Shown here: in pieces, positions 1,237 to 64,000 of the stretch
How positions within the stretch are numbered: position 1 is the stretch's first letter
Layout: the number at the start of each line of letters is the position of its first letter
Assembly: GCA_963829055.1 (NCBI GenBank)
Contig: CAWHHI010000005.1
Span: 256,001-320,000, forward strand
DNA length: 64,000 bases
Source of the DNA: an uncultured Gemmatimonadaceae bacterium
GTDB taxonomy: Bacteria; Gemmatimonadota; Gemmatimonadetes; Gemmatimonadales; Gemmatimonadaceae
Direction of reading: 5' to 3'
The notes under the pieces: generated by a model
What the model was told of the DNA's origin: nothing
Databases searched by the model: none
What the model saw: the letters and a program-made list of their open reading frames with translations, nothing else
Program-made: the position numbers and the translations under genes

Positions 1237-1298
1237 AACGTTGGCGGCGGTCAGGGCATCATGGCTTCATGACGCACTGCCTAACGACCACCACGAGC

Positions 1299-1904
1299 CT
1301 AACGCCGATTCGCCCCGCGGCCGCCGGTCTGAGCGCTCCGCGCCGCGATCAGCGCGTCCACGGACCGCATGAGGTGCTCGCCGACACGCTTGAGCCCGAT
1401 GCACTGCACGCACGCCTTGGCGCCCTCGATCATCATGTAGAACTGATCGGCCGCCAGCTCGGGCTCGGGGAAATCGGCCTCGCGGCAGAGTGTGAGCACG
1501 CGGTCGTGCTCCCGCACGCGGTGCTCATCGATCAAGCGGCGCGCCGGGTGGTCGGGCTCGGGGAGATCCGCCAGTGCGTTGCCTAACGTCGACCCGCGTT
1601 CCTCCATCTCGGCGAACTTCGCAGCCACGCGGCGACTCCAGTCCACGAGCTGCGCCTGCGGGTCACCCGGATGCGCGATGGCGATCGCTTCCCAGTCCTC
1701 CTCCTTCTTCTCGATGATGCCGCGCACCCACTCCGTCACGAGCTCGTCCTTCGACGCGAAGTGACGATACAGGGTCATTTTGTTCGTCCCCGCCGCCTCG
1801 GCCAGCGCTTCCACGCCGACACCCCGAATGCCGACGCGACGAAACAAGTCGTCGGCAGCCTCGAGAATGCGTTGGCGTGGAGGGACGCGGGTGGTGTCGG
1901 TCAT
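1299..1904 (-). CDS. TetR/AcrR-family transcriptional regulator
   Basis: RQRILEAADDLFRRVGIRGVGVEALAEAAGTNKMTLYRHFASKDEL HTH; divergent from the efflux operon. Confidence 0.93.
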   Translation of the reverse strand: MTDTTRVPPRQRILEAADDLFRRVGIRGVGVEALAEAAGTNKMTLYRHFASKDELVTEWVRGIIEKKEEDWEAIAIAHPGDPQAQLVDWSRRVAAKFAEMEERGSTLGNALADLPEPDHPARRLIDEHRVREHDRVLTLCREADFPEPELAADQFYMMIEGAKACVQCIGLKRVGEHLMRSVDALIAARSAQTGGRGANRR

Positions 1905-1943
1905 GACAAAAGCGAGTGCGTCGAATTCGGAGACGACTGTGAC

Positions 1944-1994
1944 TTGACTTGTGTGTTACCGATCGGTAACATGCCCAATGTTACCGATCGGTAC
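1944..1994 (+). promoter_or_regulatory. Sigma70-like promoter overlapped by two TetR operators
   Basis: TTGACT (1944-1949) -17 bp- TAACAT (1967-1972); perfect palindrome TGTTACCGATCGGTAACA (1954-1971) and a near-copy TGTTACCGATCGGTAC (1979-1994). Confidence 0.8.
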
Positions 1995-2240
1995 CTCGTT
2001 TGGTAAGGTACCCGTGACTGTTCACTTGGTTCGCGGACGTCGCAATGAAGCTCTTCCAAATCAGCACCACGGACCGACCGCGCACCAGATGGGATTCCCC
2101 GATATCGCGCCGCGCGGGCCCCGCGGTCGAGGTCGGGCTCGGCGGCTCCTGACCGCCGCAACCCCGCCGACTCATCAGGATCCAGTCCATCAATGTCCGA
2201 GCGGCGGAGCACCATAGCGTTACAGAGAGGAATCGCTCCT

Positions 2241-2852
2241 ATGTCTACCAACGCCATTTCTACCCCGGCCCGCCTCGCGGCGGTTGCAGCCTTCACTCTT
2301 TCCAGCGCCTTCGGCGCGGCGAACCTCGACGCGCAGGACATGGCCACGCACACCTCGAATGGTTTCGAGCTCAGGCCCTACGCAGGCGCGTACATCCCCA
2401 CCGGCCAGCAGCGCGACGTGCTGAAGGACGCCGTGCTCATTGGCGGGCAAGCGTCATACCGGATCCTTCCCCAGCTCGCGCTCACCGGCACCCTCGGATG
2501 GTCGCCGAGCAAGGACCGTGTTACCCCGGGCGACCAGACGGTCGACCTGTGGCAGTACGACCTCGGCGCCGAGCTCCGCGCGCCGTCATGGCTCACGTCC
2601 GGCGCGTGGGATTTCACGCCGTTCATCGGACTCGGCGGCGGCGGTCGCACGTACAACTACCGCGATCTCGACGTCGACTCGAAGACCAACGTCGCCGGCT
2701 ACGGCACGCTGGGCGGTGAGATCGGGTTCGGCCGCATCGGACTGCGCATCGAGGGACGTGACTACGTCTCGCAGTTCAAGCCGTTCGACGGCGGCGACTC
2801 CAAGACGCGGAACGACGTGACCGTCGCCGCGGGCCTAACGCTGCGCTTCTGA
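2241..2852 (+). CDS. Outer-membrane beta-barrel protein (OmpA-like transmembrane/porin family)
   Basis: Signal peptide, alternating beta-strand pattern (FELRPYAGAY, FTPFIGLGGG, IGLRIEGRDY), C-terminal Phe (LTLRF). Confidence 0.75.
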   Translation: MSTNAISTPARLAAVAAFTLSSAFGAANLDAQDMATHTSNGFELRPYAGAYIPTGQQRDVLKDAVLIGGQASYRILPQLALTGTLGWSPSKDRVTPGDQTVDLWQYDLGAELRAPSWLTSGAWDFTPFIGLGGGGRTYNYRDLDVDSKTNVAGYGTLGGEIGFGRIGLRIEGRDYVSQFKPFDGGDSKTRNDVTVAAGLTLRF

Positions 2853-2933
2853 TCGCCATCACCAACTAACCTGACGCGCGCCGCCGGCCGACGCTTTCAC
2901 CGGCTTCAACCGGCGGCGCGCATGGGAGAACGA

Positions 2934-4134
2934 ATGCCTTTCATGAAAGACACCACCCGCGCGACCATCGGCACCATGCTGGACACCGCCGCGCGCCGTA
3001 CGCTCGCCGCCGGCATCGTCGCGGCAAGCGTCCTGATCGCCGCGTGCAGCAAGCCGACGCCGCCTCCGCAGCCGTCGCAGGTGACCGTCGCGCCAGCCAT
3101 CGGCCGTCAGGTCGCCGACTGGGATGAGTTCAGCGGACACTTCGAACCGGTGAACGCGGTCGACGTCCGGCCGCGCGTGTCGGGCTTCGTGGATCGCGTC
3201 ACGTTCACCGAAGGGTCGATCGTCAAGCGCGGCGATCCATTGTTTTACATCGACGCTCGCCCGTACCAGGCGGAGGTCGAGCGGGCCGAGGCGCAGCTCG
3301 TGCAGGCGAGGACGCGGGCGCAGCTGGCGCAGGGCGAGCAGGAGCGCGCTCAGCGGCTCGTCGCCACGCAGGCGATCTCACGCGAGGAGCTCGACACGCG
3401 CACGAGCGGACGCGCCGAGGGTGACGCGGCCGTGCGTGCGGCGCAAGCCGCGCTGACGACCGCGCGTCTCAATCTCGAGTGGACGGTCGTGCGCGCACCG
3501 ATCTCCGGTCGCATCAGTCGCGCGGCGATCACGGCCGGCAATCTCGTACAGGCCGGTCCGCCAGCGGCGACGCTGCTGACGACGATCGTCTCGCTCGATC
3601 CCATCTACGTCTACTTCGACAGCGACGAGCACTCGTACCTGCAGTACGTGCGCAGCATGCGCGCGGGCTCGTCGAAGCAGTTGCCGGTCTACATCGGTCT
3701 CGACGAACGAGACCGGTTTCCCGCACGAAGGGAAGCTCGACTTCGTCGACAACCGCCTCGACGCCGGCGCTGGCACGATCCGCGTGCGTGCGCTCGTTCC
3801 GAACCCGAACCAGCAGTTCGCGCCAGGCCTGTTCGCGCGCGTTCGGCTCGTGGGCGCGGAGCAGCACGCGGTCACGCTCATTCAGGATCAGGCTGTCGGC
3901 ACCGATCAGGATCGCAAGTTCGTGCTGATTCTCAAGCCGGACAGCAGTGTCGAGTACCGCCCTGTGTCCCTCGGCCGCCTGGTCGACGGTCTTCGCGTCG
4001 TGAACTCCGGCCTCAAGCCGGGCGAGGACGTCGTCATCAACGGCCTGCTGCGCGTTCGACCGGGCATGAAGGTCCTGGCCAAGCGCGCCACTATGGCCGG
4101 CGACTCGGCCACACTCGCGACCGCGACGCCGTAA
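2934..4134 (+). CDS. RND efflux periplasmic adaptor (MexE/AcrA-like), frameshifted near 3710
   Basis: Lipobox AAC, VDVRPRVSGFV, VRAPISGRISR; continues in the next frame (FVDNRLDAGAGTIRVRA...GLKPGEDVVINGL). Start codon uncertain (2922/2934/2943). Confidence 0.9.
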
Positions 4135-4183
4135 CGCGCCGCCGGTCATAAGCTCTCGCTTACCTCTACTCGGAGTAACTCAC

Positions 4184-7100
4184 GTGCGCTTCTCACGCTT
4201 CTTCATCGACCGCCCGATTTTCGCGGTCGTGTTATCGCTCGTCGTTCTCGCCGCCGGGCTCATCTCGATCTTCGCGCTGCCGGTGAGCGAGTACCCCGAG
4301 GTGGCGCCGCCGACGATCACGGTGCGCGCCGTCTATCCCGGCGCGAACCCGACGGTGCTCGCGCAGACCGTCGGCACGCCGCTCGAGGATGCCATCAACG
4401 GCGTCGAGCAGATGCTCTACATGTCGTCGTCGGCCACCGCCGATGGCGTGTTGAACCTCACCGTCACGTTCGAGATCGGCACCAACGTCGATCTCGCGCA
4501 GGTGCAGGTGCAGAACCGCGTGAGTCAGGCGCTCGCGCGACTTGCCGGAAGAGGTGCGCGCGTTCGGTGTCACGACCGAGAAGCGGTCGCCCGACATCAC
4601 GATGGTCGTGCACCTCGTCTCGCCGGACGGGCGCTACGACCCCGTCTACCTGCGCAACTACGCGTTGCTCAACGTCAGGAACGAGCTCGCGCGTCTCCCG
4701 GGCGCCGGGCAGGTCGTCGTGTTCGGCGCGGGCGACTACGCGATGCGCGTCTGGCTCGACCCGAACAAGGTTGCGGCGCGCAGACTGTCGGCGAGCGACG
4801 TCGTGAACGCGATTCGCGAGCAGAATCTGCAGGTCGCGGCCGGCGTCGTCGGCGCGCCGCCGATGCCGAATCCGCAGGCGTATCAGCTGACCGTCCGCGC
4901 GCGCGGGCGGCTCGTCGACGAGACGGAGTTCGGCAACATCATCGTGAAGACCGGCGAGGACGGCGAGGTCACACGTCTTCGCGACGTCGCGCGCATCGAG
5001 CTCGGCGCCGGCGACTTCGCGCTGCGCGCGCTGCTCAACAACAAGTCGGCGGTCGCGATCGTCGTCTTCCAGGCACCCGGCTCCAACGCGCTCGCGCTCT
5101 CGAGCGGCGTTCGCGAGAAGATGGCCGAGCTCAAGACGCGGTTCCCGCAGGGTGTGGAGTGGGCGGCCGTGTACGACCCGACGGTCTTCGTGCGCGATTC
5201 GATTCACGAAGTCATCCGCACGCTGCTCGAGGCCACGCTCATGGTGGTCCTCGTCGTCGTGCTGTTCCTGCAGACGTGGCGCGCGTCGATCATTCCGCTC
5301 GCCGCCGTCCCGATCTCCATCGTCGGCACGTTCGCGGTGATGCTCGCGGCGGGCTTCTCGATCAACACGCTGTCGCTGTTCGGGCTCGTGCTCGCGATCG
5401 GCATCGTCGTCGACGACGCCATCGTCGTCGTCGAGAACGTCGAACGTCATATCGAGGAAGGGCTGTCGCCGCTCGAGGCGAGCCACAGCGCCATGGAAGA
5501 AGTGAGCGGGCCGATCATCGCGATCGCGCTCGTGCTGTGCGCCGTGTTCGTGCCGGTCGCGTTCATCAGCGGACTGACTGGACAGTTCTACCGGCAGTTC
5601 GCGCTCACGATCGCGTTCTCGACGCTCATCTCGGCGTTCAACTCGCTCACGCTCTCGCCGGCGCTGGCCGCGGTGTTGCTCAAGCCGCGCAACGCAGCCG
5701 GCAGATCGCCCGACGCGCGTGATGAACCGGCTGCTCGGCTGGCTGTTCGTGCCGTTCAACCGCGTGTTCGCCCGAGCGTCCGAGCGCTATCGCAACGTCA
5801 CTGCGCCGCATCATCGGGCGGTCGGCGGTGTCGCTCGCCGTGTACGGCGGCCTCGTCGCGCTCGGCGTGCTCGGCTTCTCGCGCGTGCCGGCCGGCTTCG
5901 TGCCGACGCCAGGACAAGCAGTACCTCGTCGCCATCGCGCAGCTGCCTGACGCGGCGTCGCTCGACCGCACGGAAGCCGTCGTGCGTCGCATGGGCGAGA
6001 TCGCGCTGGCGCAGCCGGGCGTCGAGCACGACGGTGCAGTTCCCCGGTCTGTCGGTGAACGGATTCGCGAACAAGCCTAACGCCGCCGTGATCTTCATCG
6101 GCCTCAAGCCGTTCGAGGAGCGGACGTCGAAGGAGCTGAGCAGCGGCGCGATCGTCGGGGCGCTCAACCAGAAGCTGAGCGTCATCCAGGACGCGTTCGT
6201 CGCCGTCTTCCCGCCGCCGGCCGTGAACGGACTCGGCGCGATCGGCGGATTCAAGCTGCAGCTGGAGGATCGCGCCGGGCTCGGCGATTCCGCGCTCTAC
6301 GCCGCCGCGCAGACGCTGCTCGGCCAAGACGTACCAGACGCCGCAGCTCGCCGGACCGTTCTCGAGCTTCCAGGTGAACGTGCCGCAGCTGTTCGCCGAC
6401 GTCGATCGCGACAAGGCGAAGCAGCTGGACGTTCCGCTGACGGATCTGTTCCAGACGCTCCGCATCTATCTCGGCTCCGCGTACGTGAACGACTTCAACA
6501 AGTTCGGTCGCACGTATCAGGTGATCGCGCAGGCGGACGCGCCGTTCCGCGCGACGGCCGAGAACATCACGCAGCTCAAGGTGCGGAACACGCGCGGCGA
6601 GATGGTGCCGCTCGGCTCGCGTGCTCACCGTGAAGCAGTCGTACGGACCGGACCAGGTCACGCACTACAACGGCTACCCGTCCGCCGACATCAACGGCAG
6701 CGCGGCGCCGGGCGTGAGCTCGGGTGAGGCGGTCGCGACGATGGAGCGGCTCGCGGCGGAGACGCTGCCTAACGGCATCAGCGTGGACTGGACGGAGCTG
6801 ACGTACCAGCAGAAGCTCGCTGGCAACACGGCCATCTTCGTCTTCCCGCTGTGCGTGCTGCTCGTGTTCGTCGTGCTGGCCGCGCAGTACGAGAGCTGGT
6901 CGCTGCCGCTCGTGATCATCCTGATCGTGCCGATGACGCTCTTGTCGGCGATCGCGGGCGTGTGGATCACGCGTGGTGACAACAACGTGTTCACGCAGAT
7001 CGGCCTGCTCGTGCTCGTGGGGCTGGCGTGCAAGAACGCGATATTGATCGTCGAGTTCGCGCGCGATCTCGAGCACCAGGGGCGCGATCGCCTGACCGCG

Positions 7101-7418
7101 GCGCTCGAGGCGAGCCGCATCCGTCTGCGCCCGATTCTCATGACGTCGTTCGCGTTCATCATGGGCGTCGTTCCGCTCGTGATCGCGAAGGGCGCCGGCG
7201 CCGAGATGCGTCGCGTCATGGGCATCGCCGTGTTCTCCGGGATGCTCGGCGTCACGTTCTTCGGCCTGCTGTTCACGCCGGTCTTCTACGTACTCATTCG
7301 CGGTCTCGCCTCGAGAGGCGCAGCAAAGACCGATGCCCCGTCGGATGACGACGTGCGTCCGCTGCGCATTCCCGAGCGCATTCGCGCGGTTGGTGGAGAG
7401 GGAGTGTCCCATGCGTAA
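4184..7418 (+). CDS. RND efflux permease (MexF/BepE-like, HAE1), several frameshifts
   Basis: MRFSRFFIDRPIFAVV, GIVVDDAIVVVENVER, GLACKNAILIVEFA and RLRPILMTSFAFIMGVVPL are spread over ORFs 4184, 4542, 5719, 6374 and 6621. Confidence 0.93.
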
Positions 7419-8920
7419 TTCGTTGCCCCTGTATCTCATGCTCGCCGCGTTCGCAGCCGCCTGTGTCGGCGCGCCGGCGTATCAACCGCCGAGCGTGCGC
7501 GTGGCGCCGGCGTATAGCGCGGTCGCGCGCGAGTCGGCTCGCCCGAGTGCGGCGGATTCGAGCCGGCCGTCGTCGCGGACTTCGGTGACGGCGATCAGCT
7601 CCCAGTCGGGAACGGACGCCGTCGCCCGGTCCGCGCAGTACAGCACCGCCGTCTCGGCAGCACCATTCTGGCGTGACCTCGGTGATCCGACGCTGACTCG
7701 GCTCATCGAGGAGGCGTTGCGCACGAGCACCGATGTGAGCGCGGCCGAGGCGCGCGTCACGAGCGCGCGGGCGACGCGGCGGGTGTCGTCGTTCGACCTC
7801 GCGCCGACCATCACGGCGGTCGGGAGCGCGATGCGGCAGCGGTCGTCCATCGCGCAGCTGCCGGGCCTAACGAGTCAGCTGCCGCAGCAGACCCTGTACG
7901 ACGTCGGCTTCGACGCGTCGTGGGAACTGGACGTGTTCGGGCGGGTGAACCGCACCGTGAATGCGTACCACACGCTCGCGGTGTCGGCGGAGCATGGCTT
8001 GCGCGACGTGCAGGTGACGCTCGCGGCGGAGGTCGCGCGCACGTACTTCGAGCTGCGTGGGGCCGAGCAGCAGCTCGCTGTCGCGCGGCGCAATTCGGAG
8101 AATCAGCGCCGCACTGTCTCGCTCACTGAAGATCGACTGACTGCTGGGCGCGGCACGGCGTTCGACACGGAGCGGGCGAAGAGCTCGTTGAGTCTGACAC
8201 TCGCCGCGATTCCCATCCTCGAGTCGCGGATCGCGGCCGATCGTAATCGTATCGCGACGCTCGTTGGTCGCGCCGCGGGAACGTTGCCGGCTGAGTGGCT
8301 TCCGGCGGGCGATCTTCCGACGCTGCCGGACACCGTGCGTATTGGATCGCCGACGCAGCTCGTGCGTCAACGTCCGGATGTGTTGAGCGCCGAACGCCAG
8401 CTCGCGGCGCAGTCGCAGTTCGTCGGTGCCGCGCAGTCGGAGTATCTGCCTCGACTTTCTCTCGCCGCGAACGCCGGCTATCTCGCCGACCGCGTTCGAC
8501 TCGCTGAGCCGGAATGGGACGTCGCGCTTCGTGGCGGGTCCGGTGCTGTCGTGGCCGTTGCTCGATCTCGGCCGCGTGAAGGCGCGCGTGGACGTCGCGC
8601 ACGCCAACGAGGACGCGGCGAAGGCGCAGTACAGCGCGACTGTGTTGCGCGCAGTGGAGGAGACGGAGACGTCGCTCGTCACGTACGATCGCGCGCATGC
8701 GCGGTTGGCGTTGCTGAACGAGGCGGTGCGTGCCAGCACGCGCGCGTCCGAGCTCGCGCAGCAGCGGTTCGAGGCGGGGCTCACGGACTTCCTGCAGGTG
8801 CTCGACGCGCAGCGTACGCAGCTCGACGCCGAGAACCAGCTGGCGCAGGCGCACACGGCGGCGGCAACGTCGCTGGTGGCGGTCTACAAGGCGGTGGGAG
8901 GAACCTGGCCGATTCGGTGA
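7411..8920 (+). CDS. Outer-membrane efflux factor (NodT/OprN/TolC family lipoprotein), frameshifted near 8485
   Basis: Lipobox AAAC, ASWELDVFGR, RQRPDVLSAERQLAA, C-terminal LVAVYKAVGGTW; start overlaps the permease end. Confidence 0.9.
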
Positions 8921-8948
8921 CCGTGTGTCACGCTGACCCGCACTACGC

Positions 8949-9051
8949 AACGCAGAGCGCTCTGAATGCGCAGAAAGACGCAGAAAAGAACTTGAACGAA
9001 TTGCTATTGCTGTTTTCTGCGACGGTCTGCGCGTTCAGAGCGCTCTGCGTT
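8949..9051. repeat. Long imperfect palindrome (REP-like, CGCAGA-rich)
   Basis: AACGCAGAGCGCTCTGAATGCGCAGA (8949-8974) pairs with TCTGCGCGTTCAGAGCGCTCTGCGTT (9026-9051); inner CGCAGAAAA/TTTTCTGCG arms; AT-rich loop. Confidence 0.8.
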
Positions 9052-9112
9052 CCGCCGTTCCGAGTCCAGATCGCGAACCCCGAGCGAGTACGGGCTACGA
9101 TGACCATCACAG

Positions 9113-9141
9113 AAGATCCCTCGCTGACGCTCGGGATGACA
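9113..9141. repeat. Partial GTCATCC/GGATGAC-type REP-like element end
   Basis: AGATCCCTCGCTGACGCTCGGGATGACA resembles the right end of the element at 14559-14695. Confidence 0.5.
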
Positions 9142-9185
9142 TGGGCGCTTCGCTCGGGAACGGAAGACTCGTGAGGAGAGCTGAC

Positions 9186-9635
9186 ATGAGCATGCAGCAC
9201 GTGACGATCGACGACACGCGCGCCTGGTTTCAGGCCGGCGAGCGCGAGGTGTTCATTGGCGGGGTGCTCGACCTCGCGACGACCGCGACCACGCGCGTCA
9301 GGTTTGCACGGTACGGAAGGGGAGCCACACACGAATGGATGGTCACCGTCGACGAGACGTTGATCGTGACGAAGGGCGCGCTCACGGTGCGTACGGCCAC
9401 GAGCACGCAGACGGCGCGGACCGGCGAGGTGATCTCACTCGCGAAGGGAACGCGTGTGGTATACCGGGGCGAGGAGGACGACACGGAAGTGGTGTTCGTG
9501 ACGCACGTGCAGTCGGCGGACGCGCCGCGGTACGTCGATCGCGCGGCCGCGATCGAGGAACCACGCCTAACGCTGGTTCCGGGAACGATCTCCTCCGCGG
9601 GGGCCGGTGTGACACCGCTCCGACGAGGCGCGTAG
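9186..9635 (+). CDS. Cupin-domain protein (EutQ-like)
   Basis: GAGGAG RBS; FARYGRGATHEWMVTVDETLIVTKGALTV...ARTGEVISLAKGTRVVY cupin pattern. Confidence 0.7.
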   Translation: MSMQHVTIDDTRAWFQAGEREVFIGGVLDLATTATTRVRFARYGRGATHEWMVTVDETLIVTKGALTVRTATSTQTARTGEVISLAKGTRVVYRGEEDDTEVVFVTHVQSADAPRYVDRAAAIEEPRLTLVPGTISSAGAGVTPLRRGA

Positions 9636-9645
9636 CCAGCAGAGG

Positions 9646-11920: not shown

Positions 11921-12173
11921 AGCGTATCGTTGGTCGAAGGCTTCCGTTCGGCAAGAAACAGGCGTCCGTGGCTCCTACCAGCGCCCAGTTGCTTTCATCC
12001 GCGCGTCGCTGCTCGCCTACTGGCGAGAGGGCGCTTCATGACTTCTTCATGGTGGCAATTGCATGGGATTCAGACCCTAACGACCCGCCCTGGCGTCACT
12101 TCCATAGTGCAAGCTGTGCAGCATCCGGTCCGTTCGCATCGCCCGCCCCCGGGGTCTCGGGTATACTTCAAGC

Positions 12174-12869: not shown

Positions 12870-12872
12870 CTC

Positions 12873-14549
12873 GTGCCGCCCTGGCTGCCACGAGCACGAC
12901 AGCTCTTCACCGGCGAGTCCAATCGCGGCGTCCGGCGCGCGTGGCTCCTCTGGTTCGGGGTCCTCGCGCTCGTCACGGTCGCCATGCTGCAGGTGCAGGA
13001 TTCGCTGCACGAGGCCCATGTCGCGCTCGCGTACCTCCTGGTCGTCCTTGGCGCGAGCGCGTCGGGAGGACGCGTCCTCGGCCTAACGCTGGCGGGCGTC
13101 GCCTTCGGGTGCTTCACTTTTTTCTTCGTCCCGCCCTATCACACGTTCACCGTCACCGAGCCGCTCGACTGGCTCGTGCTGGTCGCGTTCCTGGCGACGA
13201 GTGCCGTTGCCGCGCAACTGCTCGCGCGCGCGCAGAACGAAGCCGCGGCGGCCCGGGAGCGCGCCACCGAGGTCGACCGACTGTCGTCGCTCGGTTCGGA
13301 GGCGCTGAACGCCGGACGCGCCGAGGACGCGCTCGTGGCCATTGCCGACGTGATCCGGGGGACACTGGACACGGTCACGTGCGAGATCTACCTGCGCGAT
13401 GAGCCGCGTCACTCGGTCACACTGGCGGCTCGCAGTAGCATCAAGCCCGCCACCGACGCCACGGACACGGGCTCGTTCAGCCTAACGGGCGACCGTGACA
13501 GGCTCCCTGGCCTGCGCCCGCCCGGCATGCCCGGCGGCGCACGGCTCGTCGAGTGGGTTGCCGAGAGCGGGCGTGCGGTCGCGAGGCGCGCGGACGGAAC
13601 GACGCGGTTCGCCGATGCCGGGCTACGCATCGCCGAGCGCGCCGCGTTCGACCCGACGGGCGCGGGCATACTGCTCCTCCCCTTGCAGGTGCGCGGCCGC
13701 ACGGTGGGCGTGCTGTCCATCGAACACGCCGACGCGCTCACGCTCGACGCGCCGCGGCTCCGCTTCCTCGAGGCACTGGCGTACTACGCGGCGTTAGGCG
13801 TCGAGCGCGTGCGGCTCGTCGCCGAAGCGGAGCACGCCGAAGCGCTTCGCCAGGCGGACCGGCTCAAGGACGCGCTCCTCGCCTCTGTGTCGCACGACCT
13901 GCGCACGCCGCTCACCACGATCAAGGCGCTGGCCCACAGCATTGGTGCCGAGGGGGATGAGCGTGCGGTGACCATCGAGCAGGAAGCCGACCGGCTCAAC
14001 CGCTTCGTCGCTGACCTGCTCGACCTGTCGCGGCTCGCGGGCGGCGCGCTCACGGTGACGCCGGAGCTCACGGCCGCCGACGACCTGCTCGGGGCGGCGT
14101 GGCAGCGGGCGTCCGGCGCGTTAGGCGACCGGGTGCTCGAGGTGTCGCTCGACCCGGACGAGCCGCTCCTCGTCGGCCGCTTCGACTTCGTGCACTCGCT
14201 CAGAGTACTGGTCAATCTGATCGAGAACGCGCTCAAGTATTCGCCGGCGACCGAGCCAGTCGAGGTTGCCGCGCGGCGAGTCGGTGACGTGCTCGAATTC
14301 CTCGTCGAGGACCGCGGCGCGGGGATTCCGGACATCGAGCGGGAGCGCATCTTCGAGCCGTTCTATCGTCCGAGCGACAGCCCGCCGGACACGAGCAGCG
14401 CCGGCCTTGGCCTCTCCATCGCTCGCGGCCTGGCCGAGGCGCAGGGGGGGAGTCTCCGCTACGAGCCGCGTGAAGGGGGCGGGAGCCGTTTCATCTTCTC
14501 CGTCCCGGCGGCTGACCTGACGACACTCGAGGTCACTCCAGGGTCGTAG
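12873..14549 (+). CDS. kdpD: KdpD-like sensor histidine kinase (DUF4118 TM + GAF + HisKA/HATPase; no N-terminal KdpD/Usp domains)
   Basis: Four-TM block ending FFFVPPYHTFTV, SVSHDLRTPLTTI, NLIENALKYS, DRGAGI, GLGLSIA. Confidence 0.82.
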   Translation: MPPWLPRARQLFTGESNRGVRRAWLLWFGVLALVTVAMLQVQDSLHEAHVALAYLLVVLGASASGGRVLGLTLAGVAFGCFTFFFVPPYHTFTVTEPLDWLVLVAFLATSAVAAQLLARAQNEAAAARERATEVDRLSSLGSEALNAGRAEDALVAIADVIRGTLDTVTCEIYLRDEPRHSVTLAARSSIKPATDATDTGSFSLTGDRDRLPGLRPPGMPGGARLVEWVAESGRAVARRADGTTRFADAGLRIAERAAFDPTGAGILLLPLQVRGRTVGVLSIEHADALTLDAPRLRFLEALAYYAALGVERVRLVAEAEHAEALRQADRLKDALLASVSHDLRTPLTTIKALAHSIGAEGDERAVTIEQEADRLNRFVADLLDLSRLAGGALTVTPELTAADDLLGAAWQRASGALGDRVLEVSLDPDEPLLVGRFDFVHSLRVLVNLIENALKYSPATEPVEVAARRVGDVLEFLVEDRGAGIPDIERERIFEPFYRPSDSPPDTSSAGLGLSIARGLAEAQGGSLRYEPREGGGSRFIFSVPAADLTTLEVTPGS

Positions 14550-14558
14550 CGGCGCGTT

Positions 14559-14695
14559 GTCATTCCGAGCGCTCTGTCATTCCGAGTGAGCGAAGCGAGT
14601 CGAGGAATCCCTGGCTTGCAGGGTAGAGAGCCCTCTATCGGGACGATCGCGATTCCTCGACTGCGCGGCCTGACGGCCGCTCCGCTCGGAATGAC
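14559..14695. repeat. REP-like palindromic element (GTCATTCCGAGCG ... CGCTCGGAATGAC)
   Basis: Left arm duplicated (14559-14571 and 14576-14588), inner AGTCGAGGAATC/GATTCCTCGACT pair, right arm 14683-14695. Confidence 0.8.
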
Positions 14696-14704
14696 CACCG
14701 AAGT

Positions 14705-14754: not shown

Positions 14755-14832
14755 TCGCGACCGGTAGCGTAGCGTATCTGTCTGCGCGGAGCGTCGTCTT
14801 CGCTCCGCGAGTCTCACTGCGTCGCGATCACC

Positions 14833-50835: not shown

Positions 50836-51218
50836 TCGTGTGCTCCTGGGGAACCTCTGCGCAGGCTACCAGAGGCGGAGACAATCGCCGCGTGCCGCTC
50901 GATCGTTAGGCGTTAGGCGATCGATGGGCGCTCGTGTGCAGAGGATCCCTGAGTCTTGGGGTGAAGTTGAGAGCTCGCCCCGACCGTACGGTCGAGTCGA
51001 GTGCCTGTCAAGGAAGTGGCCCCAAGGGATGCCAGCTGAGCCGCTGACCCATTGACAAGTGTTCCTACCATCACACTCTTTGTCGCCTGGTCCCGGCCGA
51101 ATGGTGGGTGATCCCATGGCGATTGACCTGGAAGGATGTCGTGATGTGTGCGGGCCCGTCCTCCATTGGCGCCGCCTCTCGACTGTGCCTCTTCCCCCCC
51201 CCGAGAAAGGAGCCGCCT

Positions 51219-54251: not shown

Positions 54252-54267
54252 CCCGCCGAGGACCGTC

Positions 54268-55515: not shown

Positions 55516-55539
55516 TAACCCCGGCCACTTGGAGGCCCC

Positions 55540-57627
55540 GTGAACCACTCCCGAACGTCCTCGAGCGCGGCGTCCTGTCTCGTCCTTCTTTGCGCGGCGT
55601 CTGCACTCCCGGCGCAGCCGCAGCAGCCGCCGCTGTCGAACAAGATCGTGCTCGAGCAGTACCTAGACTGGGAGGAAGTCCAGGCTCCGCAGCTCTCGCC
55701 CGATGGGACCCAGATCCTGTTCACGCGCCGGTGGGTGGACAAGATGAATGACCGGTGGGAAACCAGCGTCTGGCAGATGAACGCCGACGGGTCTCATCCC
55801 CGGTTCCTGGTGCAGGGGTCTAACGTCCAATGGTCGCCCGATGGCAAGCGGATCGCCTACATCGCTAAAGGCGAGCCGACCGGATCGCAGATCTGGGTAC
55901 GGTGGATGGACGCCGAAGGCGCGGCGTCGCAGATCTCACACCTCACCGAAGCTCCGGCCGATCTCGAGTGGGCGCCCGATGGAAAGTCCATCGCGTTCAC
56001 GATGATGGTACCGGTGCCGCAGCAGGGGTTCAAGATCCCGATGCCCACGCCGCCGAAGGGCGCGAAGTGGATCGAGCCGCCGAAGATTGTCACGCAACTC
56101 ACCTTTCGAGCCGACCGGATCGGTTTCACCGACGAAGGATTCCGCCACATCTTCGTGATCCCGGCCGACGGGGGCATGCCACGGCAGATCACCAACGGCA
56201 ACTGGAGCCACAACTCGCCGAGCTTCTCGGCCGACGGCAAGTGGGTCGCGTTCTCTTCATACCGAGTCCCCGACGCGGAGCACGCGTTTGTCGGGCGCGG
56301 GCTCGAGACGGAGATCTATGTCGCGAGCACCGAGAATGGTGAGATCAAGCGGATCACGAACCATCCGGGCTCGGACGTCAATCCGACCTTCTCCCCGGAC
56401 GGTCGGTACATCGCTTTCATGTCCGCCGACTCGATCGACCATTCCGCGTGGCCTGACACGAAGCTCATGCTGATGAACGCCGACGGGTCCGGCCGTCGCG
56501 TGATCTCGGGCGCCCTCGACCGCCCGATGTCCGACGTACGCTGGGCCCACGATGCCAGCGGCGTTTATTTCAACGTCGCGAGTGAGGGCTCGCAGAACCT
56601 CTACTTCGCGTCGGTCGGCGGCCAGGTGCGGGCGGTGACTACCGGAACGCACATGCTCGCGGTCAGCGACATCAGCCGGAACGGCGTCGCCGTGGGCGTG
56701 CGCTCGACATCGCTCAAGCCTAACGACGTGGTGACGTTCACGATACCCAGGACGGGAACGGTGAGTACGTTCACGCAGGTCTCCGCCGTGAACGACGACG
56801 TGCTCGCCGGCAAGGCACTCGCGCAGACCGAGGAGGTGTGGTACACGTCGACGGACGGGCTCAAGATCCAGGGGTGGATTGTGAAGCCCGCTGATTTCGA
56901 CGCGCGGAAGAAGTACCCGCTCATTCTCGAGATCCATGGCGGGCCACAGTCGATGTTCAATGTTGGGTTCAACTACGCCCGCCAGCACCACGCGGCTAAC
57001 GGCTATGTGGTGTTGTACACGAACCCGCGCGGCAGCACCGGCTACGGCAACAAGTTCACGGACCTGATCAAGAACGCATACCCCGGCAAGGACTTCGATG
57101 ACCTGATGGCGGGCGTGGACACGGTGATCGGCCGCGGCTACATCGACACGAAGAACATGTTCGTCTACGGTTGCTCCGGCGGTGGTGTACTCACGGCGTG
57201 GGTGGTGGGCCACACGGACCGCTTCGCCGCAGCCGCTTCGCTCTGCCCGGTGATCAACTGGATAAGCTTTGTCGGCCAGACGGACGGGTCAGGCTGGTAT
57301 CAGACGTTCGACAAGCCGTTCTGGGAGGACCCGAGCGAGCACCTGCGCCGGTCGCCGATCATGTATGTGGGGCACGTGAAGACCCCGACGATCCTGATGA
57401 CGGGGATCCTCGACCTGCGCACGCCGATGCCTCAGTCCGAGGAGTTCTACCGCGCGCTCGCCCTTCGCGGCATCCCGACAGCGCTCATCCGATTCAACAA
57501 CGAGTACCACGGCACATCGAGCACGCCGTCGAACTATCTGCGCACGCAGCTCTATCTGCATAACTGGTTCGACAAGTACAGCACGAAGCCTGCGGCCCGC
57601 GCCACAACGTCGGGGGGCACGCCGTAG
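55540..57627 (+). CDS. S9 family peptidase (dipeptidyl/acylaminoacyl peptidase), exported
   Basis: SPDG propeller, IHGGP, NPRGSTGYG, GCSGGG nucleophile, DLRTP, EYHG. Confidence 0.93.
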   Translation: MNHSRTSSSAASCLVLLCAASALPAQPQQPPLSNKIVLEQYLDWEEVQAPQLSPDGTQILFTRRWVDKMNDRWETSVWQMNADGSHPRFLVQGSNVQWSPDGKRIAYIAKGEPTGSQIWVRWMDAEGAASQISHLTEAPADLEWAPDGKSIAFTMMVPVPQQGFKIPMPTPPKGAKWIEPPKIVTQLTFRADRIGFTDEGFRHIFVIPADGGMPRQITNGNWSHNSPSFSADGKWVAFSSYRVPDAEHAFVGRGLETEIYVASTENGEIKRITNHPGSDVNPTFSPDGRYIAFMSADSIDHSAWPDTKLMLMNADGSGRRVISGALDRPMSDVRWAHDASGVYFNVASEGSQNLYFASVGGQVRAVTTGTHMLAVSDISRNGVAVGVRSTSLKPNDVVTFTIPRTGTVSTFTQVSAVNDDVLAGKALAQTEEVWYTSTDGLKIQGWIVKPADFDARKKYPLILEIHGGPQSMFNVGFNYARQHHAANGYVVLYTNPRGSTGYGNKFTDLIKNAYPGKDFDDLMAGVDTVIGRGYIDTKNMFVYGCSGGGVLTAWVVGHTDRFAAAASLCPVINWISFVGQTDGSGWYQTFDKPFWEDPSEHLRRSPIMYVGHVKTPTILMTGILDLRTPMPQSEEFYRALALRGIPTALIRFNNEYHGTSSTPSNYLRTQLYLHNWFDKYSTKPAARATTSGGTP

Positions 57628-57868
57628 CACGGTAGCACGGGTACTCATGGCGAGATTCGAGCGCGGGCGTCTCGACGCGAAGCGGCTGCTGTCCGCCGTC
57701 GCCGAGCGCCCGCGTCTCACTAGTCGGCCGGCTTGGCTGGTTTCGCCGCCGCCGATCCATCGAAGTTGCGCGCGTTCTGCCTGGTGATCTCTCACCGGTT
57801 GGTTGAGTAGTGCTACGAGTGCCGGCTGGACACATGCACTGATCGAACATCCCCCACGCGCGAATTCA

Positions 57869-58115
57869 ATGACTCGGGCACTGCTGCTCCTGACGGCCGT
57901 GATGACCACGGCAAGCCTAACGACGTCACTCGGTGCTCAAGGTGACGACGTCATCCTCGTTCGTGGCGCGACGATCTACACCGCGACTGGTGCACCCATC
58001 AGCAAGGGCAGCGTCCTGATCCGAGCCGGCGACTAACGTGGCGCCGCCCGCAGGGGCCAGGATCGTCGAAGCAGCCGGTCATGGCTTAGAAGGGCGCGTC
58101 ACACACGTCCGTTGC
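57869..58115 (+). pseudogene. Truncated amidohydrolase remnant
   Basis: Signal peptide + ILVRGATIYTATGAPISKGSVLIRAG then a stop; next frame PAGARIVEAAG; no catalytic domain follows. Confidence 0.6.
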
Positions 58116-58228
58116 TCGAGCCAGCCTGGAACTCGCCTACGACCACGCCGGCGATGGGTAGTGCGAGCGACGGCGTCCTGCGAAGATTGGATCTACAAAA
58201 TGCGTCTGAACCGCGAGGAGGGACCAAC

Positions 58229-59903
58229 ATGCGCGCGCGATTCCTGAGCACGGCCGTGATCGCGTTAGGCCTGGCCGCTCGTCAGGCACCGACTCAACAG
58301 CCCGCACCGACGCGGCGACCCGTCGCCCAGCCGGCCAGTTCCGACACCGCAAGCCCAACGCGAAGCCCGCGATGACCCGCGCGTCGCACCGAAGCGCCGC
58401 GAGGGTGAAGGCCCGTTCCCGCGACTCATCATCAGGGGCACGACGCTGATCGACGGCACCGGCGCTCCACCCCGCGGGCCCGTCGACATCGTGATCGAGA
58501 ACAATCGCATCACGAACATCGCGAGCGTCGGGTACCCCGGCGTGCGGATCGACACAGCGGGACGCCCGCGCAATGCCACGCGCGAGATCGACGGGACAGG
58601 CATGTACGTGCTGCCCGGACTGGTGGACCTCCACGTCCATCAGGGCACCAAGCAGAAGGCGCCGGAGTCCGAGTACTACAACAAGCTCTGGCTCGCTCAC
58701 GGTATCACGTCGGTGCGCGGCGTGCCGTTCGCGAGCTATGCCTATTCCATTGGCGAGAAGCGGCGGAGCGAGACGAACGAGATCACCGCACCGCGCTACT
58801 GGGTGTACCAGCGACCCGGCACCGGATGGCCGAAAGGCCAGGTCCAGAATCCGGAACAGGCGCGGGAGTGGGTTCGCTGGCTCGCGCAGAACGGAGGCGA
58901 CGGCATCAAGCTCGGCGCCGAGAGACCCGACATCATGGCGGCGCTGCTCGACGAGGCGAAGAAACTCGGTCTGGGCAGCACCGCCCATCTGCAGCAGACC
59001 GGCGTCGCCCAGATGAACGCCGACGAGGCAACGCGACTCGGCCTCCAGACCGTGACGCACTTCTACGGGCTGTTCGAGAGCATGTACGAGAACAACTCCG
59101 TGCAGCCGTGGCCCGTCGACATGAACTACAACAACGAGCAGGACCGCTTCAGCCAGGTGGCTCGGCAATGGTCGCTCGTAAAGCCGGGCGGCGAGAAGTG
59201 GAACGCGCTGCTCAACAAGTTCAAGGAACGCGACGTCACACTCGACCCGACCATGGTCGCGTACCTGACGGGGCGTGACATGTTCCATCACATGAACGCG
59301 CCGTGGCATCAGAAATACACACTCCCCACGCTCTGGGCGTACTACCAGCCGAACCGTACGAATCACGGATCGTACTGGTACTATTGGACCACCTGGGATG
59401 AGGTGGCGTGGCGCAACTTCTACCGGGTGTGGATGCAGTTCCTGAACGACTACAAGAACATGGGCGGGCGCGTCACGGCGAGCTCGGACGCCGGCTTCAT
59501 CTACAACACGCCCGGATTCTCCACGATCCAGGAGATGGAACTGCTGCAGGAAGCGGGCTTTCACCCGCTCGAGGTCATTCGCGGCGCCACGCTCCACGCG
59601 GCCGAGACGCTGTTCAAGCCGAAGGGCCGCGAGGTCGAGCTGGGTGTCGTTAGGCGGGGCGCACTGGCCGACATCCTGATCGTCGATCAGAATCCGGTCG
59701 CGAACCTGAAGGTTCTCTATGGCATCGGGGCCCTCAAGCTCAACGACGAGACGGGGAAGCCGGAATGGGTGGGAGGCGTGAAATACACGATCAAGGACGG
59801 AATCGTCTACGACGCGAAGCAGCTGCTCGCCGACGTGGCCGCCATGGTCGACGAGCAGCGTAAGAAGACGCCCGCGACGAACGAAGAAAGCGCGAAGCGT
59901 TAG
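58229..59903 (+). CDS. Amidohydrolase family protein, exported, frameshift near 58360
   Basis: GAGGAGG RBS; PFPRLIIRGTTLIDGTG, LPGLVDLHVH, SSDAGFIY, ADILIVDQNPVANLK. Confidence 0.88.
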
Positions 59904-59908
59904 GGCCG

Positions 59909-61270
59909 GTGGATCGGCGTGCGTTCCTCAGGACGGGCGCTCTCACCCTCTCGAGCGCCGCGCTTGTCGCGTGCGGGCGCGATCTGCCGCTGGCGCCGCG
60001 AGGCCCGGACCGCGAAGGCCGGCGCCTCTTCTTCGCCAGCGGCATCGAGAACAGCTATCCGCTGCTCCCGAATGGGCGGCGCGTCGACGAGATGGAGAAG
60101 TGCGACCACTACCGCCGGTGGCGCGAGGACTTCGGCCTGGCGCGAGAGCTCGGCCTCGACGCGCTCCGGTATGGGCCGGCCTACTACCGAACCAATCCCG
60201 CGCCGGGGCGCTACGACTGGTCGAGCGTGGATGATCAGATGGCATGGCTGCGCTCATCCGGCATCACGGTGATCGCGGACCTCTGTCATTTCGGGGTACC
60301 CTCGTGGTTAGGCGGCTTCCAGGATGTCGCGTTCCCAGCGCAGTTCGCCGCGTACGCTCGCGAGTTCGCCCGACGCTATCCGTGGGTGCGCTACTACACG
60401 CCCATCAACGAGATCTACGTAGCAGCCACCTTCTCGGCCTGGTTCGGGTGGTGGAACGAGAGCCTAACGAGCGAGGGCGCGTTCGCGACCGCGCTGCGGA
60501 ACCTCTGCCTTGCCCACGAGCTCGCAGTGCTCGCGATTCTCGCGGAGCGGCCGGATGCGATCTTCGTGCAGGCCGAGTCGATCGAGCGCTACGAGCCGGC
60601 GGACGACAGCGCGGACGCGGCGCGTCAGGCAGCGTTCTGGAATGACGCGCGGTACGCCTCGCTCGACCTCACGCTCGGACGGCCGCCGTCACCCACCTCG
60701 ATCGATCTCCTTCGCCGAGGGGCGACGAGCGACAGCGACCTCGCGTTTTTCCGTGAGCGGCGTGCGATGGGACAGCGCTGGCTCGGTGTCGACTACTACG
60801 TGACGTGCGAGCAGGTCGTCTACGGCGACGGGAGGCGGGCGCCGGCGCCGCGGCGCACCGGGCTGGCCACGCTGGCGCGGGACTACCATCGTCGCTACGG
60901 GATCCCGCTCTTCGTGTCGGAGACCAACCGCGTCGACATGCTCGCCGTGGAATGGCTCGACGAGCAGTGGCGGGAGACACAGCTCCTGGATCGCGCGGGC
61001 GTCCCGGTGAACGGATTCACCTGGTATCCACTGACCGACGTGGTGGACTGGCGGCACGCGCTGCGCATCGAGCGGAATGACGTCGACCCGATCGGCCTCT
61101 GCGACCTCGGGCGCGCCGTGCGCCCGGTGGGAAGAGCCTACGCAGCGCTCATCGCGAGCGCCGAACCCGTGCTCGCTGTGCAACGCATTGACGATAGGAC
61201 CTCGCCTAACGCGAGCCGACTTGCGCCCGGCGGCACGGCGCCCGCCGCCGTCCCCTCTCGCTCCGGTTGA
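59909..61270 (+). CDS. Glycoside hydrolase family 1-like beta-glycosidase with Tat/lipoprotein signal
   Basis: MDRRAFL...LVAC; DHYRRWREDF, DLCHFG, TPINE (acid/base), VSETN (nucleophile). Confidence 0.8.
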   Translation: MDRRAFLRTGALTLSSAALVACGRDLPLAPRGPDREGRRLFFASGIENSYPLLPNGRRVDEMEKCDHYRRWREDFGLARELGLDALRYGPAYYRTNPAPGRYDWSSVDDQMAWLRSSGITVIADLCHFGVPSWLGGFQDVAFPAQFAAYAREFARRYPWVRYYTPINEIYVAATFSAWFGWWNESLTSEGAFATALRNLCLAHELAVLAILAERPDAIFVQAESIERYEPADDSADAARQAAFWNDARYASLDLTLGRPPSPTSIDLLRRGATSDSDLAFFRERRAMGQRWLGVDYYVTCEQVVYGDGRRAPAPRRTGLATLARDYHRRYGIPLFVSETNRVDMLAVEWLDEQWRETQLLDRAGVPVNGFTWYPLTDVVDWRHALRIERNDVDPIGLCDLGRAVRPVGRAYAALIASAEPVLAVQRIDDRTSPNASRLAPGGTAPAAVPSRSG

Positions 61271-62713
61271 TCCGCCTGGCGCAGGCAATCGGTGTTCAGC
61301 GACTCTGACTCGGCGGATGCGGTTGGGCTGCCCGGTTTGGGCAGCACTTGCAGCAGCGGCGTTGGCTTCACCGCAGTCGGCCCAACGAATGGCCGATCGT
61401 TGGCAAGGATCAGGACGATCGAGACGGCGATCGCCGTCGAGAACAGGCCTAACGCGATGCGCGCCGTCGCGCGACTGTCCGAGTGCACCATCGCGACGCC
61501 CACCAGCATGCAGACGGCCTGCAGGAGGAGCGCTGTCCACTTCACGCCGTTCACCTGCGTCTCGCTCACGAGAATCCGCTGTCGTCGCGCGTCCAGCGCA
61601 TTCTCCAGCGCCGACACGATTTCCCGCTGCGCGGCGACCTGCCCGGCCCCCTCCACCGGTGCGCCGAACGTGACCCGGAGCGCCTGGGCGAGCGCCATCG
61701 GGATCATCGCCAGCGTCACCTCGCGGCGCGCCATCGCGGGCCACTCCTGACGTTCCACTTGCTGGATGTGCTGGCGTATCAGATCGCGAAGCTGTCCCGC
61801 CGCATCCGCCGGGAGCGCCTCCGAGAGCAGAACCGCCGCGCGGAGCGACGATGCCTCTCGATTCACGGCGGCGTTCGCTCGCTCGACGTCGCCCCACGCC
61901 TGCGACGCCAGGAACGCGACGAGCGTTCCGTGCGGGCTGAATGCCCGCTGCAGCGCGGCGGTCACGTCGAGACCCGTCAGCCCGACGAACCGGCCGATCT
62001 CCTGCACGGTGACGCCGCCGCCGACCAGGAAGCGCTGGCCGCGACTCCACTCACGCCCGGTCGTACCCCACGCGACAGCGAATGAGGGAGTGGCGAAGGG
62101 AACGACCCGGATGCTCTGCCCCACAGCGAGCGAGAGCGGGACGGTGATGTCCGCCGTCCAGTGCTGCCTCTCGCCGAACGCGGCGTCCGCCCACCCCGCG
62201 CCGAACTCCAGCGTCGCCGTTCCGGTCGCGTCGTTCTCCGTGAAGAACGGGACGCGAAGGAAAGGGCGTGTGGTGACCAGGTAGTTGCTGTAGCGGATGC
62301 CCGCCATCAGCCGGTTCGTGTCGCACGAGGATTCAATGCAGAACTCCCCGTCGCCGCGCTGATACCCCACGGTGCCCGAGAGCAGCGGGCCGCCCTCGAT
62401 CTGCAGGTTGCTGACGAGGCCGTATGACGTCAGGCTTCGCCCCGCATCCAGCGCGCGCGAGCCGTACTGCAGACGAAACCCGAACGAGCAGTCTGTCATC
62501 ACGGCTCGTCGGCATCACTGGGCCGACCGGCGTCAGGGCGCCTAACGGCGTGCTCGCGATCGCCGCCAGCGTGCGGGAAAGTCCCGTCTCCGATTCCGTC
62601 GACTGAGCCCCGAGCATCCGGGACACGAGTAGCGCCAGCGACACCGATCCCGCGATGACGTGCGACCGGCCAATGGTCCAGCGGGTCCAGCGGGCGCGCG
62701 GTATGGTTCGCAT
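61138..62713 (-). CDS. Apparent fusion: exported beta-strand-rich hypothetical (N) + DUF4239/bestrophin-like membrane domain (C); frameshift near 62500
   Basis: Signal peptide and beta-barrel-like strands to RAFSPHGT, then LVAFLASQAWGDVERANAAVNREASSLR...ILANDRPFVG typical of DUF4239. Confidence 0.55.
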
Positions 62714-62716
62714 CGG

Positions 62717-63872
62717 CTATCTCCGCCCGCGCAGCCACCGTGAATACACTTCACCGTGCACGTGAGCGTCATAGCGATACACGCGCAGCAGTACACTGTC
62801 GCCCGCGGCGAAATCGAGACGCATGAAGCCGCTCGTCGCCTGACCTACGTACAGGCTCTGACGGAGCCGCGCCGCGCATTCGCCCTTGCCGATCGATCCG
62901 GCTCCGCTCACGAGCACGTAGCTCGACGTCCGCCCTTGCAGGACCTGGAGACTGTGGTCGTGACCCGCGGCAAAGATCGAGCGGAGGGCGCGTCGCGAGC
63001 GCGGCATTCACGGAGTCCCGCATCATCGTGTAGTTCTTGCCGAACAGATCCTGGCTCGTGTTCGCCCAGCGCCGGAACAGCGCGAACGCGCCACAGTAGC
63101 CTCCGTGCGGACCGCCTGTCATCAACGGATGGTGCGCGGCGACGATCACCGCTTGACCCGGGCGGGTCGTGCGCAGGGAATCGCGAATGGCTTGCGTGAT
63201 CTCGCCGATGGTGTGCGTCGTGCAGCCGGTCGCGCGATCATCCGAGGCGGAGTCGCGGACGATGTAGTTGTGCAGCCACCATTGCGTGTCGAGCAGCACG
63301 AGACGTACGCGCTCCCTGTCCACGACGACGGGCCCGGGGCAACCGTTAGGCGGCACCACCATGACTGTCGCGCCCGGGTTCTTCGGTCGCTGTGGAACCA
63401 GCGCGCCCTGGCGTCTGATGATGAACAGACCGTCGGCCGCGGTGGCGGCACCGAAGAATCCGCCCTGGCCGCCGTCGGCCCAGTCATGGTTCCCGGGCAC
63501 GAAGATGCCGGTGGCGCCACTGGGCACTGCCCGGATCTGCGCGTCCAGGCGACGCAACACGTCCGCATAGTTCGTGGCGATCTCCGGAGCGGTTCCGGCG
63601 GGGTACACGTTGTCGCCGAGGAAGAGGATCGTCGCGCGAGGCCCGACCGCCGCCGCATGCATTGCGAGCGAGTCCAGCACGGTCGCGGGCAAACGCGGGT
63701 CAGGCTCTCCGGCATCCCCAATGAGGAAGATGGTCTCGACGATCTCTTGAGGGGTCGGCGTCGGTACTCGCGCGCTTCGACAGCCAGCAATCGCGCCGAT
63801 CGCGCCGAGCATCAGCGCGAGTCGGCCGACGCGACGTGCGCGTCGATGGACTTGAGACGTCCACTTCGACAC
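62717..63872 (-). CDS. Calcineurin-like metallophosphoesterase lipoprotein, frameshift near 62985
   Basis: Lipobox IAGC, IGDAG, LGDNVYP, PGNHDW, AHHP, AGHDHSLQ, VSGAGS. Confidence 0.85.
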
Positions 63873-63907
63873 TCGAGCCTCGTGTCTTTCAGGTTGCGGA
63901 TGACGTA

Positions 63908-64000
63908 TCAGAACAATCCGGCCTTCAGGTAAAAACGGTGCTGATCGCCCCTGGCGTAGGCCATGCTGATCGTCGTGCCTAACGCCTCGACCCACGCGCC
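63908..64000 (-). CDS. C-terminus of an outer-membrane beta-barrel protein (possibly BamA/TamA-like), truncated by the window edge
   Basis: ...GAWVEALGTTISMAYARGDQHRFYLKAGLF* ends in a beta-signal-like Phe. Confidence 0.5.
   Translation of the reverse strand, partial: GAWVEALGTTISMAYARGDQHRFYLKAGLF

Follow-up and report, generated by a model that had tools for sequence, protein, structure and literature searches.

An orientation-independent, self-avoiding DNA word in Gemmatimonadaceae and a small AP2-like protein as its candidate reader

Results

Abundance and coding context of the word

The stretch analysed here (the window) comprises 64,000 nucleotides of DNA from an uncultured Gemmatimonadaceae bacterium, G000:C5:256001-320000, of a 7.78-Mb genome in 20 contigs that an RpoC tree of 48 rows places among the Gemmatimonadaceae. 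The non-palindromic heptamer CCTAACG (the word) recurs throughout the window, inside and between genes (Table 1). An earlier note on this DNA had put the count at about 67 exact copies, with about 7 expected at ~69% GC; the exact count is indeed 67 (37 CCTAACG and 30 CGTTAGG), all the coordinates that it quoted are present and the enrichment stands, whereas the GC content is 67%. Markov models of order 2 and order 3 predict 2.1 and 9.1 copies, respectively. At 55 of the 67 copies the word takes the extended form GCCTAACG.

The same excess extends to the whole of G000, in which 6,391 copies (5,004 of them GCCTAACG) stand against 248 (order 2) or 720 (order 3) expected. The word is found on both strands and on all 20 contigs, at 0.64–1.09 copies per kb. 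The enrichment persists under a codon-aware null in which the proteins were kept: 4,111 copies were observed against 209 expected (~20-fold) in 6,200 genes called by our own gene caller, with 83% of the genome coding and with frameshifts in the assembly, for example in rpoB. All six other members of the genus are rich in the word, as is G014, and the word is confirmed as a real signal and not the assembly or basecalling artefact against which the note had cautioned.

All four open frames are used across the genome (1,717, 1,357, 857 and 622 sites), as expected from the claim that the word occurs in different frames, and the open reading frame (ORF) list bears out both the rare codons that it was said to force and the TAG stops that it was said to supply. 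The word accounts for 1,717 of the 3,140 TTA codons of G000 and for 683 stop codons, and it is used at 1,207 of the 1,963 Pro-Asn-x opportunities. The observed-to-expected ratio of Pro-Asn-[ADEVG] is 1.97 in G000 compared to 1.11 in 23 loci from word-poor relatives, whereas that of Pro-Asn followed by any other residue is flat (0.96 and 0.99, respectively); the word therefore alters proteins.

Table 1. Copies of the word and their coding context in the window
Feature	Position	Strand	Remarks
Dispersed CCTAACG, 67 copies	1280..63984	37 on +, 30 on -	variant sites also present: 6 CATAACG, 3 CCTAACA
Pair of copies, 18 bp apart	1280..1304	+	ORF 1299-1904 takes its TAG stop (1299-1301, minus strand) from the second copy
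Copy read GGC CTA ACG	2834..2840	+	rare Leu codon CTA; ORF 2193-2852
Copy read GCG TTA GGC	13792..13798	-	ORF 12873-14549; commonest coding context genome-wide (1,717 sites)
Head-to-tail tandem pair	50904..50917	-	rare exception to self-avoidance in G000
Copy giving a TAG stop	59898..59904	-	stop at 59901-59903; ORF 58491-59903

Among G000 genes, word density climbs with GC content at four-fold sites, from 0.59 to 0.86 per kb, and within the same gene four-fold-site GC is ~1 point higher at 100 bp or less from a word. Three contig ends form word-free stretches of 31–50 kb (C6:5440-55038, C11:1-44055 and C6:591808-623330); they carry housekeeping genes (trp/aro, FtsK, glutamine synthetase) in many short pieces, and are probably chimeric and derived from other organisms.

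Self-avoidance, site spectrum and conservation

Copies of the word keep apart from one another. The pair correlation in G000 is 0.28 at less than 75 bp, ~0.5 at 100–175 bp and near 1 by about 300–600 bp, and the dip is present in same, convergent and divergent pairs alike, whereas none of eight control words shows such a short-range dip. Within the window, 3 of the 66 spacings fall below 150 bp compared to 9.6 expected. Self-avoidance is also evident in G005 (3 pairs at less than 100 bp versus 26.3 expected), in G014 (8 close pairs versus 22.6) and in the named plasmid records of Gemmatirosa (256 copies over 390 kb), where 18 pairs lie at 50–300 bp versus 41.9 expected; pairs at less than 50 bp are not depleted in these records (9 versus 7.1). 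Pair and flank analysis of G000 revealed neither helical phasing nor an extended flank beyond 7–8 bp. The two arms of contig C16 carry 161/203 and 246/244 copies on their strands, which, together with self-avoidance in every orientation class, upholds the view of the note that the word lacks Chi- or KOPS-like polarity.

The site spectrum was defined by the same behavior. Of 21 variants that differ by one letter, CCTAACA (6.6-fold) and CATAACG (2.2-fold) show the strongest enrichment, and both sit away from the main word (pair correlation 0.37 and 0.52, respectively, at 12–100 bp). By comparison, CCGAACG, CCTCACG and CCTGACG (the last 1.5-fold enriched) show no avoidance of the main word. The working site is (G)CMTAACR, and the CMTAACR family numbers 7,706 sites in G000; the Gemmatirosa plasmid records follow a stricter form, GCCTAACR, which is also the form in genomes that yielded no homolog of the candidate reader described below. 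CCTGACG is itself enriched in G021 (L034-L035; 30 versus 10.5 in 40 kb) and in L057 (16 in 24 kb), a possible second dialect.

Sites are also kept over evolutionary time. In rpoC, three of the five word-bearing columns are common to different genera, and the word-bearing codons differ from those of word-poor relatives mostly by silent changes. Over 52 kb aligned between G000 and G005, 70 of 103 word occurrences are kept compared to 862 of 1,906 control-word occurrences, with two control words equally conserved, and divergence does not drop near the sites in this alignment. Self-avoidance, the codon-aware excess and conservation beyond codon needs bear out the proposal that selection acts at the DNA level, and a second copy within ~350 bp adds little. 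Plain mutational bias, which the note had allowed as an alternative, is unsupported because the copies and the enriched variants avoid each other.

A candidate reader gene with a unique promoter cluster

The candidate reader is encoded outside the window, at G000:C3:271467-271769 on the forward strand (L714:5467-5766). It is a small, basic, AP2-like protein of 100 amino acids with Lys/Ala/Arg-rich tails, present as one gene per genome, and was picked by its appearance (AP2-like, Lys/Ala tail) among 22 small basic G000 proteins before the upstream DNA was read. Five sites lie upstream of the gene, at –236, –150, –57, –49 and –31, and this promoter is the sole 250-bp stretch in G000 with at least four of the 7,706 sites (Poisson 6e-6 per stretch of that size). 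The cluster is kept in seven of seven genus members, with 4–7 copies.

In metagenomes, all 33 close homologs with enough upstream DNA carry 3–6 copies, in a set that includes near-identical strains, and the flanks of close homologs hold 145 words versus 15 controls in 229 kb. The distant metagenomic homologs (n = 37) average 0.40 word per kb, some having none. Contigs from four of four soil metatranscriptome runs, found via this same stretch, cover the gene, a hint of transcription from which no level or start can be read. A second class of proteins, ~139 amino acids in length, combines a related N-terminal domain with a longer second half and occurs in G165, G121 and G130 (L746, L747 and L744, respectively); two of these have one CGTTATG site upstream.

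The AlphaFold model of the candidate has a confident core (predicted local distance difference test ~89) with strands at residues 20–25, 30–41 and 47–56 and a helix at 63–86, a predicted beta-beta-beta-alpha arrangement as in AP2 domains. The best DNA-bound structural match is the PfSIP2 AP2 repeat (6sy0; Z 6.3, root-mean-square deviation 3.3 over 61 residues), and a GCC-box domain was matched as well. The top matches are Toxoplasma mitoribosome chains (Z 7.3–8.2), which we take to be AP2-type proteins. Foldseek gave no match at E 0.001 and a sequence search of the PDB gave none; the nearest named Atlas cluster (score 0.92) is mostly from Verrucomicrobiota and carries PF00847 on 10% of its members. 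The predicted three-stranded sheet plus helix resembles AP2/ERF and ApiAP2 domains, from which the candidate differs in standing alone, in its basic tails and in lying below Pfam detection.

Distribution of the word and of the candidate gene

In an even draw of 300 genomes of the phylum, 17 reach 80 copies per Mb, all of them members of the order Gemmatimonadales; for most of the remainder the figure is 5–25 per Mb. The denominators of these 300-genome counts include the unpublished genomes G013, G085, G124 and G203, the first of which is also in the genus survey and the trees; no claim rests solely on these four. The word is patchy within Gemmatimonadales, and in named Gemmatirosa plasmid records it reaches 29 copies versus 1.3 expected in 40 kb. 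In two very word-rich genomes, G304 and G240 (L748-L761), tandem arrays of 3–5 copies with a 9–16 bp period, a pattern rare in G000, lie within coding stretches of low complexity or immediately beside genes.

In a panel of 79 genomes fixed before the candidate gene was known, a strong homolog is present in 26 of the 37 word-rich genomes and in none of the 42 word-poor ones. In the 300-genome draw, with 16 candidates scored per genome in the profile search, a match was found in 13 of the 17 genomes at or above 80 copies per Mb versus 20 of the 283 below; within the family, the counts are 9/9 and 4/61, respectively. In the RpoC tree, genomes with both gene and word appear in several separate places (the G000 group, G014 with G021, G010 and G018). 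A viral contig encoding a distant homolog has one copy of the word in 8.7 kb. With its promoter cluster and co-occurrence, this gene gives a concrete candidate to the nucleoid-protein analogy that the note had drawn.

Word-dense phages

Three word-pair scans returned 211 viral loci, most of them with chance-level counts. Over 16,975 bp, IMGVR_UViG_3300049057_000028, which encodes a portal and a terminase, carries 39 copies, whereas the reversed control occurs 3 times; six of the 39 copies fall within the portal gene, where they occupy all three frames. IMGVR_UViG_3300050501_000125 has 24 copies in 7,109 bp, none less than 90 bp apart (6.1 expected) and evenly spaced (coefficient of variation 0.52, p 0.001). 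At 2.3–3.4 copies per kb, these two phages are three to four times as dense as G000, and the share of sequence with a site 150 bp or less away is 89% in the phage locus L666 compared to 28% in the host genome.

The portal of the first phage matches 3 of 401 Gemmatimonadales genomes, best in G156 (44%), on a prophage-like contig with a single copy of the word in 30 kb, to which the second phage is matched as well (46%); the linking proteins are portal or terminase-region proteins. The other portal relatives (n = 79) have 19 copies in 895 kb. Separately, viral contigs L405/L406, L398, L411 and L381 hold 8–14 CCTAACG on one strand, mostly 200–800 bp apart, like cassette arrays or repeated phage regulatory units.

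Discussion

The word is under selection at the DNA level; its spectrum is defined, saturation sets in within ~350 bp, orientation is immaterial, and the candidate gene, whose promoter holds a unique cluster, co-occurs with it strongly but imperfectly. These observations probably reflect a sequence-directed nucleoid protein that binds the word directly, represses its own synthesis and acts in the nucleoid or as a self mark, a role that phages would imitate. In this model, (G)CMTAACR would be the double-stranded site of the AP2-like protein, read by its three-stranded sheet, and the protein would repress its own gene via the promoter cluster. One bound protein would serve the surrounding few hundred bases through compaction, protection or a self mark, and sites would therefore become fixed wherever the code allows. 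Phages of these hosts would copy the word to near saturation, and sheltering or controlling integron cassettes may have been the original role. The predicted order of binding is GCCTAACG > GCATAACG and GCCTAACA, all of them far above GCCGAACG and GCCTGACG.

Several observations weigh against a nucleoid protein of this kind. No homolog was found in the very word-rich genomes G240, G297 and G304 (96–100% complete), where searches by profile, by Pfam AP2 and through 14 tandem clusters gave nothing, nor in the intermediate genomes G036, G038, G040, G116, G125, G205 and G216; G304 and G240 also hold many tandem pairs (104 and 65, respectively), unlike G000. Conversely, 19 word-poor genomes of family f2 (5–35 per Mb) encode homologs with similar sheet residues, which group in subclades of their own; none of the 14 loci read has the upstream cluster. 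High word density therefore neither strictly requires the protein nor follows from its presence; another reader, a recent loss, or a change in specificity or expression would each account for the mismatches. The p-values are overstated because kin are not independent, and upstream copies number only 0–3 in the 19 strong homologs from beyond the genus. Support from the modelled fold is middling, with Z under 8 for DNA-bound chains, the threshold of Pfam AP2 (PF00847) was not reached, and a Pfam scan of the candidate gave nothing. Coverage cannot be essential, since just 28% of the host genome lies near sites. As to the phages, the pair scans themselves favor dense contigs, and the hosts of the two dense phages appear from sequence matches to be of Gemmatimonadaceae type.

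The main rival, which we regard as unlikely, is a DNA-uptake signal, in which a competence receptor prefers word-bearing fragments and biased transformation spreads the word, as for the DNA uptake sequences (DUS) of Neisseriaceae and the uptake signal sequences (USS) of Pasteurellaceae; the receptor perhaps first served to capture attC-bearing gene cassettes. PMC2817400 and PMC7811141 describe a pattern that fits a density of ~1 per kb, the doubled tripeptides and close-range saturation, and, with PMC2397512, a wider likeness: non-palindromic words in hundreds to thousands of copies, in genes and several frames, with lineage dialects, little gain from close copies and an imprint on the proteome. 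G000 encodes ComEC and type IV pilins and has, next to pilB, a ComEA-like gene, and the cyanobacterial word HIP1 (highly iterated palindrome 1) has been linked to transformation (PMC13756078). However, ComEC and ComEA-like matches are found in five of five genomes, word-rich and word-poor alike, and a partial comparison of the pilins of G000 with parts of four other genomes revealed no cluster specific to rich genomes and no receptor pilin, the candidate reader here being instead a small AP2-like basic protein. The word is also only 7–8 bp long with no extended flank, and inverted terminator pairs are lacking, close inverted pairs not being in excess (8 convergent and 8 divergent neighbours at less than 45 bp among 6,371 spacings). 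Moreover, uptake leaves unexplained both the promoter cluster before an apparently cytoplasmic DNA-binding protein and the three- to fourfold greater density of the phages.

A self tag for defence or end protection, in which a bound protein, AP2-like or other, blocks a nuclease or silencer in any orientation, is an alternative to which we give little weight. Selection would be weak on the chromosome and strong on incoming phage DNA. Near saturation of L666, set beside the sparse copies in the 79 portal relatives, and the orientation independence of self-avoidance fit such a tag, whereas no nuclease or silencer partner was identified and dense phages are few among the 211 loci. The self tag overlaps with the nucleoid-protein reading and differs from it solely in downstream function.

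Integron attC sites have the core consensus RYYYAAC/GTTRRRY. The word is letter-for-letter identical to the outer ends of resident attC sites, an identity that is real and that the first reading of the window had overlooked: the attC-like sites beside intI at C20:165-209 kb start with GCCTAACG and end with ACGTTAGGC. It is nevertheless very improbable that the word is bound or written, as an attC half-site, by the integron integrase (IntI) or some other tyrosine recombinase. IntI is encoded by 8 of the 11 genomes densest in the word and by 26 of the 37 word-poor ones, word-poor genomes carry the word in one-strand arrays, and the attC variants GTCTAAC and ATCTAAC are rare in G000 (48 and 35). 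The word is single, unpaired, narrower in spectrum and uncorrelated with intI; the pairing of an inverse core with a core around a hairpin is limited to a handful of sites near intI, while convergent pairs at less than 150 bp are depleted genome-wide. IntI recombines with genomic sites, for which a consensus of only GWT is reported (bioRxiv 2022.09.11.507474). As readers, neither IntI nor its N-terminal domain tracks word density, and an origin as a XerC/D arm was rejected because the dif site at C16:560.8 kb is without the word.

The chromosomal integron (G000:C20:165000-209000) has a divergent IntI just over the family cut-off and scattered attC-like sites. Further integron-related positions are C9:93484, C20:119250-119520 and C4:2922-3170, with a second IntI N-terminal piece on C4. 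The G000 IntI has Arg before LRHS where His is presumably usual. The dif-like site coincides with the maximum of GC skew; the gene for the best Xer-type recombinase lies 19 kb away.

A methylation site or a neutral mutational ratchet, as suggested for HIP1 (PMC4390886), is the least probable explanation; G000 has a split Dam-like gene, whereas a neutral ratchet would yield no self-avoidance, no C5 or beta-class enzyme was found in G000 or G304, and none of four methyltransferase families, in five genomes each, tracks the word. 5-Methylcytosine is poorly detected by the method behind the Gemmatirosa kalamazoonensis KBS708 methylome. That methylome lists only RGATCY, ATGCAC and CCAGN7TCA (PMC3974934), so that N6-methyladenine at the word is already largely refuted, and the methyltransferase-site analogue offered in the note is unsupported. 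In other respects HIP1, as described in PMC5861425 and PMC13756078, is similar: a hyper-abundant short word under codon-independent selection, patchy in its phylum and tolerant of single mismatches. HIP1 is palindromic with a reported 10-kb-scale periodicity, whereas the word here is not palindromic, has no matching methyltransferase, shows short-range self-avoidance and has a candidate reader whose promoter bears a cluster of sites.

Chi and KOPS are likewise asymmetric, over-represented 7–8-mers, in contrast to which the word is without replichore polarity, opposite orientations avoiding each other as much as same ones. The pattern is thus akin to DUS/USS and HIP1, yet it fails a defining feature of each, and also of Chi and attC. 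MatP, SlmA and Noc are sequence-specific nucleoid proteins with tens to hundreds of regional sites; the sites here are strict, number in the thousands and lie within genes. To our knowledge, HIP1 has gone three decades without a full explanation, and the USS receptor is so far a predicted one.

Returning to the nucleoid protein, we tentatively propose that some soil Gemmatimonadales may have a chromatin system comprising a stand-alone, AP2-like, H1-tailed protein, a strict 7–8-bp word corresponding to the attC core, self-regulation, and thousands of evenly spread sites driven into genes at an amino-acid cost, with phages mimicking the mark as self and with a different reader in other lineages. 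No description of the word or of the candidate protein was found in searches of the open-access literature. If the reader holds, the system would be a bacterial sequence-directed chromatin that shapes codon and amino-acid choice and a new way of marking and organizing chromosomes; otherwise the word is another highly iterated genome word. The word now has a 100-amino-acid candidate reader, a predicted spectrum (CMTAACR), a ~350-bp scale, presence/absence contrasts and phage mimics. The approach of finding the sole cluster of a self-avoiding word is transferable to other orphan words, and the word flags phage host range and foreign DNA in assemblies of these lineages.

Other features

Topoisomerase IB was rejected as a reader: all 11 of the densest genomes have it, as do 15 of 42 word-poor ones and only 8 of 26 intermediate ones, and it is thus neither needed nor enough. 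G000 has two bacterial topoisomerase IB genes (C4:50478-51122 and C19:85120-85710), which are found in seven of seven genus genomes. An Rfam scan of the window gave no match. Within the window, positions 14559-14695 hold three copies of a core resembling repetitive extragenic palindromes, GTCATTCCGA, which occurs 719 times in the genome.

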